IMG/VR virus record: IMGVR_UViG_3300035390_000014
Coordinates: 96,001-160,000 of that record
Source of the DNA: a virus
Taxonomy: Duplodnaviria > Caudoviricetes
Reading direction: 5' to 3' (one strand)
Length of the DNA stretch: 64,000 nt
Shown: piece after piece, positions 21,397-54,636 of the stretch
How the letters are laid out: every line of letters starts with the position of its first letter
Numbering within the stretch: the stretch's first letter is position 1
The notes under the pieces: generated by a model
What the model was told of the DNA's origin: nothing
What the model saw: only the letters and a program-made list of their open reading frames with translations
Databases searched by the model: none
Position numbers and translations under genes: made by a program

Positions 21397-21490
21397 GAAC
21401 GAACGAAAAAGGCACGGGATCACGTGGTCCCACGCAAAGTCACAGGTCTTTTATAAAGGATAAAAGATGGCTGGTCTACCGAAAACGTTC
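21397..21490 (+). promoter_or_regulatory. c-di-GMP-I (GEMM) riboswitch, copy 2
   Basis: Same core; P1 GAACG/CGTTC; P2 and P3 loops differ from copy 1. Confidence 0.8.
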
Positions 21491-28857: not shown

Positions 28858-28949
28858 GGGTTCGTCACCTAGATGGCCGATGGTACCAGACTTTTAATCT
28901 GGAGCGGATATCAATCCCCACGTGAGTTCGAATCTCACCGAACCCACCA
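28858..28949 (+). tRNA. tRNA-Lys(UUU) with long variable arm
   Basis: GGGTTCG/CGAACCC, CCAGA-CTTTTAA-TCTGG, variable stem GGAT/ATCC; 92 nt. Confidence 0.85.
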
Positions 28950-30379: not shown

Positions 30380-30491
30380 GAGCGTGATCTAATAATCGGT
30401 AATATACGTCAGGTAGTATCAAGACAATGCAACCGGGCCTCGCCAAGAAGTACTGATGTAGATATGGGTTCAAGTCCCATTCACGCTCCCA
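30380..30491 (+). ncRNA. tRNA-like RNA with expanded anticodon region
   Basis: GAGCGTGA/TCACGCTC plus CCA; T arm ATGGG-TTCAAGT-CCCAT; 8-bp TACGTCAG/CTGATGTA enclosing ~40 nt. Confidence 0.6.
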
Positions 30492-30694: not shown

Positions 30695-30783
30695 TGCGCT
30701 ATAGAGTAGTTGGTCAACTCACTTGTCTCATAAGCAAGACTCCCTAACCGGAGACGTAGGTTCGAATCCTACTAGCGCTCCCA
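30695..30783 (+). tRNA. tRNA-Met(CAU) with long variable arm
   Basis: CTTGT-CTCATAA-GCAAG, variable stem CTCC/GGAG, 1:72 mismatch, CCA. Confidence 0.85.
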
Positions 30784-31085: not shown

Positions 31086-31157
31086 GCCGAGAATCTAAGG
31101 AGATATCTATGTTTCATACGCAAAGACTAGTGGATTCGATTTCCACTCTCGGCACCA
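31086..31157 (+). tRNA. tRNA-Met/Ile2(CAU), atypical
   Basis: GCCGAGA/TCTCGGC, loop TTCATAC, short D arm, A73-CCA. Confidence 0.7.
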
Positions 31158-34892: not shown

Positions 34893-34980
34893 GGTAGGAA
34901 TGTTGAAATTGGTAAACATGCGAGGTTGTGATCCTCGTGCCTTAAGTGGTTTGCGGGTTCGAATCCCGTTTCCTACCCCA
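34893..34980 (+). tRNA. tRNA-His(GUG) with long variable arm
   Basis: G-1:C73, CGAGG-TTGTGAT-CCTCG, Leu-like D arm, variable stem GCC/GGT. Confidence 0.88.
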
Positions 34981-41872: not shown

Positions 41873-42002
41873 GCCCTCATTGAGAGCGTTTCTACCAAGG
41901 AGCCATAATGTTGAATCTAGATAGATGTTATGGAAATTGATTAGAGCGAGAGGTATTCTCATTGGTCTTAGGATCAGATAGGTTCGAGTCCTATTGGGGG
42001 CT
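41873..42002 (+). ncRNA. tRNA-like RNA (acceptor plus T arm) with large central domain
   Basis: GCCCTCA/TGGGGGC, ATAGG-TTCGAGT-CCTAT; nested stems TGAGA/TCTCA and CCATAA/TTATGG. Confidence 0.55.
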
Positions 42003-42012
42003 GAATAATTTT

Positions 42013-42160
42013 AATGGAAGAACGGAAAATAATTACAGTAGTCCATTAGGAGGACGTGTTTGGAGGTTCGAATCCTTCTTTCCCCACCACACATTTATGG
42101 GGAAATAGGCAAACTGGTACAGCCGCGTAATACAACAATTATTTTTAAATTACTTCCATT
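42013..42160 (+). ncRNA. Y-RNA-like unit 3 (permuted tRNA with internal ACCA)
   Basis: AATGGAAG/CTTCCATT; GTCC-ATTAGGA-GGAC; GGAGG-TTCGAAT-CCTTC; TTTCCCCA/TGGGGAAA; D arm GGC..GCC. Confidence 0.8.
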
Positions 42161-42824: not shown

Positions 42825-43090
42825 ATATGAGGTTTGTCGTTTTGAAATATGAAACGAATACTTTAATCAGGATTTGTATTTTGCTATTTTATTGCCCTGG
42901 ATAATACCGGCCCCCAATGGGACTGCCTGGTTACTGGGCCTGCATAACCCACGCGCGTGGTTGGCACTTTAGATCCTGAAAAAGTAAAAAATAGCTGAAA
43001 ACGTGGAGACTATCCACTACTAGATTTGACAACCTAGAAACTAGTACACAGTAAGCTGAGATTGTCAGTCTTAGAATCTGTGCCTCATAT
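42825..43090 (+). ncRNA. unclassified structured RNA, ~265 nt
   Basis: ATATGAGG/CCTCATAT closing stem, several nested stems, GC-rich core, possible pseudoknot. Confidence 0.55.
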
Positions 43091-43102
43091 TACAATTTTT
43101 AG

Positions 43103-43249
43103 AGAGTTAGAACGAAAAAATATTCCAGATATACAATATAGGTTCAATCCCTATTTTGGGCTCCAAGCATGCCCATGCTGACAATTGGCTGTCAACTTGT
43201 CTTAAACAACAGGTGTAATAAATAAAATATTTTTTAAATTACTAACTCT
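43103..43249 (+). ncRNA. Y-RNA-like unit 5 (permuted tRNA: T, acceptor, D, anticodon)
   Basis: AGAGTTAG/CTAACTCT; ATAGG-TTCAATC-CCTAT; TGGGC/GCCCA; TGAC/GTCA; CTTGT/ACAGG. Confidence 0.8.
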
Positions 43250-47363: not shown

Positions 47364-47446
47364 GCAGAAGTCGGTCAACGGTAGATCACCTGCCTTCCAA
47401 GCAGGCGCTTTAAGCATTGCGGGTTCGATTCCCGTCTTCTGCTCCA
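47364..47446 (+). tRNA. tRNA-Gly(UCC) with long variable arm
   Basis: GCAGAAG/CTTCTGC, U73, CCTGC-CTTCCAA-GCAGG, 13-nt variable region GCT/AGC. Confidence 0.88.
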
Positions 47447-50152: not shown

Positions 50153-50650
50153 ATGTATGAATGTTATAAATGTGGAAGAGAATTTAGTAAAGCTGAGGGG
50201 TTATCCAAACATGTAAAATCATGTGTTGGTAAAAGGTATTGTAAACAGTGTGGCATAGAAACAAAAAATCCAAAATTTTGCTCATCTAGTTGCGCTGAAA
50301 CTTATAACAATACTCAGTATTTATTAGAAACAAAAAAAGAAGAGGCAGTATCTTATGAACTATCTGCTAAACCTTATTTTGAATTATCAATACATGACAG
50401 AAAAGAAATTTTATGGCTTGAACAAAAGCACAAATGTTTGACTTGTGAATTTGATTTGTATGATCCTATAAATGTACCATATGAAATATATCATGTAGAT
50501 GGTAATGATACTAATAAACAAAGATCTAATGAACAATTGTTATGTTGCAATTGTTATAATATGAAACCAAATTATAGATTCAAAGGTATAAAGCATACTA
50601 AAGAATCTAAAAAAATAAAGAAAAAGATGTTAACAATTATGCCCCTATAG
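50153..50650 (+). CDS. zinc finger / HNH-like endonuclease, possibly degenerate
   Basis: IYHVDGNDTN..NEQLLCCNC; stop lies inside tRNA-Arg. Confidence 0.65.
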   Translation: MYECYKCGREFSKAEGLSKHVKSCVGKRYCKQCGIETKNPKFCSSSCAETYNNTQYLLETKKEEAVSYELSAKPYFELSIHDRKEILWLEQKHKCLTCEFDLYDPINVPYEIYHVDGNDTNKQRSNEQLLCCNCYNMKPNYRFKGIKHTKESKKIKKKMLTIMPL

Positions 50651-51667: not shown

Positions 51668-51743
51668 GCCGGTGTAGCTTATTGGGAGAGCCGAGAACTC
51701 TAAATTCTTGATTGAGTAAGTTCGATCCTTACCATCGGCACCA
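51668..51743 (+). tRNA. amber suppressor tRNA (CUA)
   Basis: GCCGGTG/CATCGGC, GAGAA-CTCTAAA-TTCTT, canonical D and T arms, A73-CCA. Confidence 0.88.
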
Positions 51744-51771: not shown

Positions 51772-52407
51772 ATGTATTATACACTTTATAAAACTACCAA
51801 TATATTAAATGGGAAATTTTATATTGGGTGTCATAAAACAAATGATCTCCATGATGATTATATTGGTTCAGGCAAATATTTAACTAATTCTATTAATAAA
51901 TATGGTATAGAAAATTTTATCAAAGAAATAATGCAATTATTTTTTTCATCTGAACAAATGTATGAGATGGAAAGTTTATTAGTTGATGAAAAATTTGTTG
52001 AAAGAAAAGATACTTATAATTTAAAAGTTGGTGGTGAAGGCGGTTTTGATTATATTAATGAAAATGGATTAAAATGTAAAACTCCTTTTATGTCTGATGC
52101 ATTTATTAATGCTAGAGAAAAAGTAATATTAAAAAGAAAAACCGATCTTGAATATGCTAAACAACATTATAAAAAAACAAGAGAAGGTTTAAAAAAATAT
52201 TATAAAACTAATTATAATGCATTTAAAAATCAACAACATACTGAAGAAACAAAAAAGAAAATAGGTTTAAACACCTCTTTTCATCAAAAGGGTAAAAAAA
52301 ATTCTCAGTATGGGACAATGTGGATAACCGATGGTATTAATAATAAAAAAATAAAAAAAGTTTCTATGATTCCAGAAGGTTGGAATAAAGGTAGAAAATT
52401 GAAATAA
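51772..52407 (+). CDS. GIY-YIG homing endonuclease
   Basis: YTLY..KFYIGCH..YIGSG. Confidence 0.85.
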   Translation: MYYTLYKTTNILNGKFYIGCHKTNDLHDDYIGSGKYLTNSINKYGIENFIKEIMQLFFSSEQMYEMESLLVDEKFVERKDTYNLKVGGEGGFDYINENGLKCKTPFMSDAFINAREKVILKRKTDLEYAKQHYKKTREGLKKYYKTNYNAFKNQQHTEETKKKIGLNTSFHQKGKKNSQYGTMWITDGINNKKIKKVSMIPEGWNKGRKLK

Positions 52408-52486
52408 GTCCCTGTATACCCTCTGATTACGAACCAGATGAAAGGTTAACGGACACATGGAGGTTCGAATCCTCTCAGGGATACCA
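52408..52486 (+). tRNA. rearranged tRNA-Arg(ACG)-like gene
   Basis: GTCCCTG/CAGGGAT plus ACCA; T arm; TCTGA-TTACGAA-CCAGA arm begins 7 nt after the acceptor strand. Confidence 0.65.
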
Positions 52487-52655
52487 AAAGTAAGCACCGG
52501 AGTTATCGGTGAAAAGATTGCTGGTGGAAGTCAACATGTTCATGCGATGGGGTTTAATTGGAGGGTATCTACGAATGCCCTCCAATTATTCCGTTGGAAA
52601 ATTTATACAAAAAAAAGAGACTTACCACATATGTAATGTGTGCTCTTTTTTTGTA

Positions 52656-52850
52656 TTAATTTAATTTATATTTTAATTCTTTAACTTTTCTATTAAATTC
52701 ATCAACTTTACTTTCATATTTTTTTCTGGCTTCTTTCATTCTATGATCTGATGATGTTGTGAGACCTAAAAATATAGCTGTATTTAAATTAAGTTTAATT
52801 AAATCCAATTCAATTTGCATCTCATTAATTTTTTCAATAATATTTGACAT
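52656..52850 (-). CDS. hypothetical coiled-coil protein
   Basis: Part of the minus-strand island. Confidence 0.55.
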   Translation of the reverse strand: MSNIIEKINEMQIELDLIKLNLNTAIFLGLTTSSDHRMKEARKKYESKVDEFNRKVKELKYKLN

Positions 52851-54362: not shown

Positions 54363-54636
54363 AGATGATATATTAGAGAAATGTATTGATAAATGGGGTG
54401 CTAATTTTCAGGTTGAATTAGCAGTAGAAGAGATTGGTGAATTAATTGAACAATTAGGTTCAACTCTTAAATCAATTAATCAATATAAAAGAGATAGAAT
54501 TGGGTTAGAAAGATTAATGGAAGAATTTGCTGATGTATTTTTAATGATGCAGCAAATGAGAGCAATTGATCAAAAATTATTTGATGATATTTCTGAATAT
54601 AAAGTGGAGAGATTAAAGGAGAGATTAGAAAAATGA
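54343..54636 (+). CDS. MazG-like NTP pyrophosphatase
   Basis: EEIGEL and EEFADV. Confidence 0.7.
   Translation: MSLVIIEDDILEKCIDKWGANFQVELAVEEIGELIEQLGSTLKSINQYKRDRIGLERLMEEFADVFLMMQQMRAIDQKLFDDISEYKVERLKERLEK

Follow-up and report, generated by a model that had tools for sequence, protein, structure and literature searches.

Layout of the rearranged element

The window analysed here is a stretch of 64,000 nucleotides (nt) from a virus of the Caudoviricetes, corresponding to bases 96001–160000 of a 202,719-base IMG/VR record (IMGVR_UViG_3300035390_000014), which is ~65% complete according to CheckV and has a G+C content of 30%. At positions 52408–52486 on the plus strand lies a 79-base gene resembling an arginine transfer RNA (tRNA) and consisting, in order, of a 7-bp acceptor stem, a 7-nt linker, an ACG anticodon arm, a 20-nt segment, a T-arm, A73 and CCA. 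An earlier note, made from the letters of the window, had described the acceptor, the T arm and the terminal ACCA as intact, as is confirmed in the sequence, and had placed the arm TCTGA-TTACGAA-CCAGA 7 nt past the acceptor strand; the position is right, but the stem of this arm consists of four pairs plus an A·C mismatch. The parts of the element are given below, where counts of members refer to the family of related genes described in the next section.

52408–52414, plus strand: acceptor stem 5′ strand GUCCCUG (GTCCCTG in the DNA), with 7/7 pairs to 52476–52482, including a G1·U72 wobble
52415–52416, plus strand: U8 and A9, invariant in 117/117 members listed, both left free by the search patterns
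52415–52421, plus strand: the whole linker TATACCC (UAUACCC), at the place where a D-arm is expected
52417–52420, plus strand: strand in the putative role of the D-stem 3′ strand (positions 22–25), a U followed by ACC, the latter pairing with GGU at 52444–52446
52421, plus strand: single C in place of position 26, at the junction of the new helix with the stem of the anticodon arm; all 7-nt linkers can be divided into 8, 9, 22–25 and 26
52422–52438, plus strand: anticodon arm UCUGA-UUACGAA-CCAGA with the anticodon ACG at 52429–52431; four pairs and A31·C39, with U33 and A37 present
52439–52458, plus strand: 20-nt segment TGAAAGGTTAACGGACACAT between the anticodon arm and the T-arm
52439–52443, plus strand: unpaired joint UGAAA from the anticodon stem to the putative relocated D-stem strand, of variable length across the family
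52444–52446, plus strand: putative relocated D-stem 5′ strand GGU (positions 10–12), pairing with ACC at 52418–52420
52447–52453, plus strand: D-loop look-alike UAACGGA, read as U13, A14, A15, C16, G18, G19 and A20, a motif shared with conventional tRNA-Arg
52454–52458, plus strand: joint CACAU into the T-stem, its last U in place of U48 and opposite A15; the final AU occurs in 113/117 members listed and was not imposed by the search
52459–52475, plus strand: T-arm GGAGG-UUCGAAU-CCUCU, a 5-bp stem with a UUCRANU loop
52476–52486, plus strand: acceptor 3′ strand CAGGGAU (52476–52482), A73 (52483) and encoded CCA (52484–52486)

All three pairs of the new helix can be formed in the window copy (A52418–U52446, C52419–G52445 and C52420–G52444), and four of the five anticodon stem pairs are retained, as in many relatives. 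The length before the CCA is 76 nt, compared with a family median of 79 nt. The acceptor with N73 and CCA, the T-arm and the 7-nt anticodon loop with U33 and A37 are all those of a cloverleaf, and the D hairpin between positions 9 and 26 is absent.

The suspicion in the earlier note that standard scanners would overlook such a non-standard fold proved right. ARAGORN reported 26 tRNAs and one transfer-messenger RNA (tmRNA) across the window with no call at 52408–52486, and an Rfam search at gathering thresholds gave no match there either. With permissive settings the Rfam tRNA model RF00005 scored 26.7 bits against a gathering score of 29, and the Infernal alignment to this model placed 4 nt where the model has a 15-position D-arm and required a 17-nt insertion in the variable region. 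A covariance model built from the rearranged family (R1), on the other hand, gave the window copy 73.2 bits (E ~1e-17) and the ordinary tRNAs of the window 33.7 bits or less; the resemblance of the window copy to the family is far above chance.

A family of rearranged tRNA-Arg genes in phages

The earlier note had proposed a search for the same layout in other phages, and pattern scans of IMG/VR indeed recovered many homologs with compensatory changes. A scan for an ACG anticodon loop and a T-loop with an over-long spacer between them returned homologs with entirely different stem sequences, and a second scan with a wider pattern gave at least 32 distinct ACG genes. A third scan, in which a D-loop-like motif, GTAAYTGGA, was fixed near the T-loop and the anticodon was left free, recovered other anticodons as well. 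Altogether, at least 117 distinct genes with the relocated layout were found on at least 109 viral contigs. The anticodons of the 117 genes listed are ACG (44), UCU (56), UCG (9) and CCU (8), all of them for arginine, and a CCA is part of the gene in 86 of the 128 parsed matches listed. In every member listed the linker starts with U8–A9 and continues with 5 or 6 nt, of which those at –4 to –2 from the linker end pair with the 3 nt preceding a UAAYUGGA-type motif 3′ of the anticodon arm; the same pairing is found in the window copy. The length of the joint 3′ of the anticodon stem and that of the segment after the D-loop motif show a weak inverse trend across the family (r = –0.39).

Cultured carriers include phiCbK (Caulobacter) and Mildred21 (Streptomyces) as well as phages of Brevundimonas, Vibrio, Microbacterium and Rhodococcus, in the last four of which the copies are unannotated or labelled 'hypothetical protein'. 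The core of the window element is 91% identical to a copy in Mildred21, while the acceptor stems of the two differ with compensation. A scan of cellular genomes, with one genome per prokaryotic species, gave 120 loci, of which 37 hold true members, all for arginine, mostly on contigs of metagenome-assembled genomes and additionally in three Bradyrhizobium isolates; the other 83 are chance matches in coding sequences or class II tRNAs.

Outside the 117 arginine genes, the matches listed included a single clean gene for Ile(GAT) and a few class II tRNAs that had been parsed wrongly. Rearranged genes with the Ile(GAT) anticodon are found in L366 (Mildred21, NC_042008.1, 73703–73779) and in L151. 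The Mildred21 gene is unannotated and is flanked by genes for a tRNA nucleotidyltransferase and for an FtsK-like protein. Its relocated loop reads UAAGUGGU, giving G16 and U20 in addition to A73, all three of which are listed as isoleucine determinants (PMC9976931), although this is a single example.

Covariation of the standard and the new helices

In a MAFFT alignment of the 32 ACG genes listed, pairing amounts to 99% in the acceptor stem, 96% in the anticodon stem and 100% in the T stem. Double-sided changes were observed at 17 of 20 pairs, the values obtained were reached in 0/500 shuffles, and pairing fell to 36–49% when the registers were slid. When 111 genes were aligned to the covariance model, 95.1% of the cells were paired, compared with 39–47% in slid controls. 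Across the family, double-sided changes occur at all 7 acceptor pairs and all 5 anticodon-stem pairs, and the anticodon stem is 94–96% paired. Since the standard helices covary well above shuffles and slid registers, the family is a selected structured RNA and not a relic.

The helix that joins the linker to the 3′ segment behaves in a similar manner. The earlier note had suggested that the 20-nt segment might pair back with TACCCT; covariation backs a pairing between the two regions, which is confined to ACC (52418–52420) with GGT (52444–52446). In an alignment-independent parse of the 117 genes listed, the three pairs of this helix are formed in 100%, 99% and 57% of members. All four Watson–Crick types were observed at the middle pair (GC 46, CG 45, UA 18 and AU 7), the total for the helix was reached in 0/2000 shuffles, and sliding the partner by 1–2 nt reduced pairing to 23–35%; counts on the model-fitted alignment show covariation likewise. 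In an unbiased all-against-all mutual-information scan the middle pair came 7th out of all column pairs, alongside pairs of the canonical stems; inside the 3′ segment the same scan revealed no covarying or rival pairing. The C–G bias of the first pair is partly imposed because the third scan fixed its G; where this G was left free, A–U (the window copy, L068, L084 and L123) and U–A (L090 and L116) occur as well.

The relocated D-region and arginine identity elements

The identical string GUAAUUGGA (GTAAYTGGA) is also present in L089 and L115, two tRNA-Arg(ACG) genes of the conventional type recovered in the pattern scans, as their ordinary D-stem 5′ strand and D-loop, and on the strength of this identity the relocated motif can be read as position 13, A14, A15, Y16, (U17), G18, G19 and A20. 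The length of the 7-nt linker is exactly that of positions 8, 9, 22–25 and 26. The simplest description is a transposition of positions 10–21 into the variable region, and the D-arm appears to be split and relocated rather than absent, given that the 3′ segment seems to hold a D-stem 5′ strand and a D-loop look-alike with G18G19 and A20.

Conservation of single positions across the family follows that expected of a tRNA core. Like U8 and A9, A37 is kept in all 117 genes listed; a combination resembling A15...U48 is present in 115 of them and G...C in one more. GG-A occurs in every member, including those from scans that left it free, and the T-loop UUCRANU is kept across the family. C35 and either G36 or U36 are found in every member, and all 117 listed have G, U or A at position 73. 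Bacterial arginine identity is set by A20, C35, U/G36 and A/G/U73, with A20 as the main determinant for the Escherichia coli arginyl-tRNA synthetase (ArgRS) (PMC9976931). At the sequence level this set is present in the window copy, as an A right after the GG in the relocated loop, the ACG anticodon and A73.

The core of a canonical tRNA is held together by the triples 9-12-23, 45-10-25 and 46-13-22 and by the pairs 8-14, 15-48, 18-55 and 19-56. Because of these triples, the three new junctions of the rearranged chain (9 to 22, 44/45 to 10 and 21 to 46–48) join nucleotides that are already neighbours, so that the L-shape can survive the changed chain order; by analogy with the canonical fold, an unchanged L-shape is plausible.

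Genome setting and decoding gaps

All scanner-detectable tRNAs of the record lie within the window, scattered among small open reading frames (ORFs) and homing endonuclease genes. The 26 conventional tRNAs provide one per codon box, with CGN as the sole sense box without a conventional tRNA. Anticodons with U34 are present in every four-codon box except CGN, and the set includes Ile(UAU), giving a minimal, near-complete decoding set. CGN accounts for 18% of the arginine codons in long ORFs, mostly as CGU and CGA. These two are the codons best read by an ICG anticodon.

Comparable gaps are present in two of the cultured carriers. ARAGORN finds 29 tRNAs in phiCbK (NC_019405.1), none of them for arginine, and the rearranged ACG gene (52333–52412) lies within the tRNA array, in a gap without annotation that is flanked by tRNA-Gln and tRNA-Gly; phiCbK was stated to be the only phage of its group without an arginine tRNA (PMC3556154). 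In Mildred21 the sole conventional arginine tRNA has the anticodon CCU, and the rearranged ACG, UCG and UCU genes complete the set without duplication. The deposited labels of the latter three are none for the ACG gene, 'tRNA-Phe(gaa)' for the UCG gene and 'tRNA-OTHER' for the UCU gene.

Upstream, an ORF at 51772–52407 ends 1 nt before the element and encodes a homing endonuclease (phrog_314, E = 5e-40), with ~71% DNA identity to Seg-like GIY-YIG genes of T4-like phages; a Pfam search on this ORF gave nothing useful. Endonuclease ORFs adjoin tRNAs elsewhere too: the ORF at 50153–50650 overlaps the start of a tRNA-Arg(UCU) at 50641, and in Mildred21 (L366; 90931–91365 of the Mildred21 record) an HNH gene stops 2 nt short of the rearranged gene for Arg(UCG). 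Downstream, the following feature was observed.

52487–52660, plus strand: structured 3′ trailer, with a fold z of –4.6 and 0/200 shuffles folding as well

The trailer contains a 14-bp hairpin (52555–52588), 70 nt past the tRNA, with the loop CUACGA, which corresponds to the core of the anticodon loop in tRNA-Arg(ACG) but forms a 6-nt loop here; no second copy of this hairpin is present within the window. A terminator-like hairpin with a U-run follows at ~52608–52653, and thereafter the ORFs lie on the opposite strand, which makes the element the final gene of the tRNA island on the plus strand.

Several other features of the island are recorded here. A tRNA with the anticodon CUA, which would read amber codons, is located at 51668–51743. 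Recoding of TAG as an explanation for it was rejected, as 151 ORFs of at least 150 amino acids compare with 160 when TAG is read as sense; TAG ends 21 of the 151 long ORFs. Because reading TAG as sense barely lengthens the ORFs, the phage appears to lack stop recoding. Four tRNAs with long variable regions (83–92 nt by ARAGORN), unusual for their identity, are those for Lys (28858–28949), Met (30695–30783), His (34894–34980) and Gly (47364–47446); annotated Lys tRNAs of phiCbK are also 88 and 91 nt long, and a long-arm 8/4 tRNA-His has been described in alpha-proteobacterial phages (Mukai et al., PMC5389517). A match to the cyclic di-GMP-I riboswitch aptamer (21401–21483, 39.1 bits against a gathering score of 35) lies within the tRNA island, and the phage tmRNA (13075–13464) encodes the tag peptide ADNFADDYALAIAA. 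Weak matches to R1 (E = 0.05–0.16) at places without an ARAGORN call are found at 42023–42086, 41970–41994, 43082–43162, 31086–31154, 30456–30480 and 54412–54477. ARAGORN additionally reports 'tRNA-???' in phiCbK (NC_019405.1, 69516–69611, complement) with the 4-base anticodon ccgc and in Mildred21 (NC_042008.1, 97925–97997) with the 2-base anticodon gc.

Proposed mechanism and alternative explanations

Combining the covariation, the conserved core positions and the decoding gaps, we consider it likely that the element is a genuine phage tRNA-Arg(ACG) with a relocated D-region, probably active in decoding. The chain would run through positions 8–9, 22–25 and 26, the anticodon arm, a short joint, positions 10–13, the D-loop look-alike, a joint ending in U48 and the T-arm. 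The two short strands may enclose the anticodon arm by pairing with each other and, in the manner of a D-stem, stack on it, and the relocated loop would be able to make the U8–A14 and A15–U48 contacts as well as those of G18G19 with the T-loop, and to present A20 to ArgRS. The host TadA would presumably deaminate ACG to ICG, which reads CGU, CGC and CGA. For the three-dimensional fold, processing, formation of inosine at position 34, charging by ArgRS and use on the ribosome, we infer tRNA-like behaviour from this arrangement.

Several observations weigh against this proposal. The new helix is short, with 2–3 pairs, and its third pair is formed in only about half of the members. Its nearest-neighbour energy in the window copy is neutral (–16.5 versus –16.4 kcal/mol), and RNAalifold on an unfitted alignment predicted the three standard helices only, without the new one; support for this helix thus comes from covariation, as RNAalifold and energy evaluation lend it none. 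The minimum free energy structure of the single sequence (–19.0 kcal/mol) is a different fold with a z of –0.2 relative to shuffles. Uninformative folding of single sequences is common for tRNAs. Some of the motif invariance was imposed by the search patterns and the parser, the third scan having fixed GTAAYTGGA, and the A31·C39 mismatch adjoining the anticodon loop is found in the window copy only among the 117 genes listed.

The lack of the new helix in the RNAalifold prediction and its energy gain of about zero, together with the Infernal alignment, which amounts to a deletion of the D-arm plus a 17-nt variable insertion, would fit a tRNA that truly lacks a D-arm and whose long variable region is unstructured or folds on itself, the D-loop likeness being incidental, as in reduced mitochondrial tRNAs; ViennaRNA can even draw a small hairpin inside the 3′ segment. 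Nevertheless, no covarying pair was detected within that segment, whereas the covariation between linker and segment, with four Watson–Crick types, survives shuffles and slid controls. The identity of the motif to the D-stem strand and D-loop of conventional phage tRNA-Arg, the match between the 7-nt linker and the length of positions 8, 9 and 22–26, the normal overall length (median 79 nt) and the retained GG also speak against it, and we regard a D-armless tRNA as very unlikely. Somewhat less improbable, though still unlikely in our assessment, is a non-decoding look-alike that acts as a decoy or ligand and binds or titrates a protein, for instance ArgRS, TadA, a defence nuclease directed at tRNA or an enzyme of the phage. 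A non-canonical core that standard models reject is compatible with such a role, as is the second hairpin with a CUACGA loop 70 nt downstream, but a decoy has no need to combine a full acceptor/T branch of 7 and 5 bp with a CCA in the gene and with a canonical 7-nt anticodon loop that has U33 and A37. Nor would it account for the occurrence of all four kinds of arginine anticodon, for the three genomes in which members fill exactly the anticodons left open by conventional tRNAs, or for phiCbK, which is otherwise without any arginine tRNA.

The position 1 nt after the endonuclease ORF, the A·C mismatch and the score under the Rfam threshold might raise the suspicion of a chance resemblance, or of a tRNA-Arg pseudogene, decayed or recombined, next to the gene of a homing endonuclease. 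This explanation is effectively refuted by more than 100 homologs with compensatory changes in every helix, by the 91% core identity to the Mildred21 copy with acceptor stems that differ with compensation, and by the score of 73.2 bits on the family model with all conserved positions intact.

Other candidates were considered and rejected. An intron-containing tRNA does not apply, as splicing of any known intron type would leave the order non-standard, and in a circularly permuted gene the acceptor strands would lie mid-gene, whereas here they lie at both gene ends. A class II tRNA would be expected to have a self-paired, covarying variable hairpin, in place of which the segment pairs with the 5′ linker. 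For a YrlA/Y-RNA domain (RF02553) no match was obtained at E up to 10 over 52300–52700, and the acceptor stem is terminal with CCA.

Within the favoured reading as a genuine tRNA-Arg with a relocated D-region, a reason for its maintenance can be suggested tentatively. An L-shaped, ArgRS-charged and decoding permuted tRNA may be kept as a poor substrate of enzymes, of the host or deployed by phages, that recognise a canonical D-arm, such as tRNA-directed defence nucleases; this is a possibility that we hold with considerable doubt. If it were true, the phage would retain arginine decoding while conventional tRNA-Arg is attacked.

Comparison with known systems and significance

Compared with canonical tRNA-Arg(ACG) (RF00005; E. 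coli tRNA-Arg ICG; L089 and L115), the rearranged family shares the 7-bp acceptor, the 5-bp T-stem with a UUCRANU loop, N73-CCA, the CU/UU-ACG-AA anticodon loop, U8, A14, A15–U48, G18G19, A20 and the GUAAYUGGA string. The difference is that the D-stem 5′ strand and the D-loop precede the anticodon arm in the canonical tRNA and follow it in the rearranged family. As a consequence of this order, the D-stem would enclose the anticodon arm and no D hairpin is formed.

The nearest concept is that of the non-circular permutations in hairpin and hammerhead ribozymes (Eckert et al., Nucleic Acids Research 2023, PMC10085705), in which, as in the present family, internal segments are reordered 5′ to 3′ with the same contacts possible and without circularisation. 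These ribozymes are self-cleaving, unlike the present genes, and tRNA is not treated in that work, which states that no such permutation in natural RNAs was known before it (PMC10085705). Circularly permuted tRNA genes, known from Cyanidioschyzon merolae and other algae (Soma 2014, as cited in PMC10085705), resemble the phage genes in that the order of the parts departs from the cloverleaf. They differ in that the 3′ half precedes the 5′ half and a circular intermediate restores a standard tRNA. We know of no processing step that could restore the standard order from the phage layout.

The D-arm-lacking mitochondrial tRNAs of nematodes and mites (e.g. PMC2797822) likewise run from the acceptor to the anticodon arm without a D hairpin, and they function in translation. 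They are, however, shortened, lack G18G19 and the elbow contacts and require adapted partner proteins, whereas the phage family has a normal length and a D-loop look-alike. Allo-tRNAs and the 8/4 or 9/3 tRNAs (Mukai et al., Nucleic Acids Research 2017, PMC5389517) are also non-standard architectures from metagenomes and phage tRNA clusters, but in these it is the acceptor/T partition that is changed, the variable arms are long and the D-arm is in its normal place (PMC5389517). The literature, in a search that covered subscription journals thinly, yielded no account of a tRNA whose D-arm is relocated, and a widespread phage arginine tRNA family with a rewired D-region is thus apparently undescribed.

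Because gene finders for tRNA overlook these genes or give them wrong labels, the tRNA complements of phages and analyses of their codon usage are systematically incomplete for arginine. The chain order of the cloverleaf is among the most conserved features of tRNA, and if the rearranged genes work, the L-shaped adaptor tolerates another wiring of its core. This would bear on how tRNAs are recognised by ArgRS, RNase P, EF-Tu, modification enzymes and the ribosome, as well as on the design of orthogonal tRNAs, and the cultured carriers make the idea directly testable.
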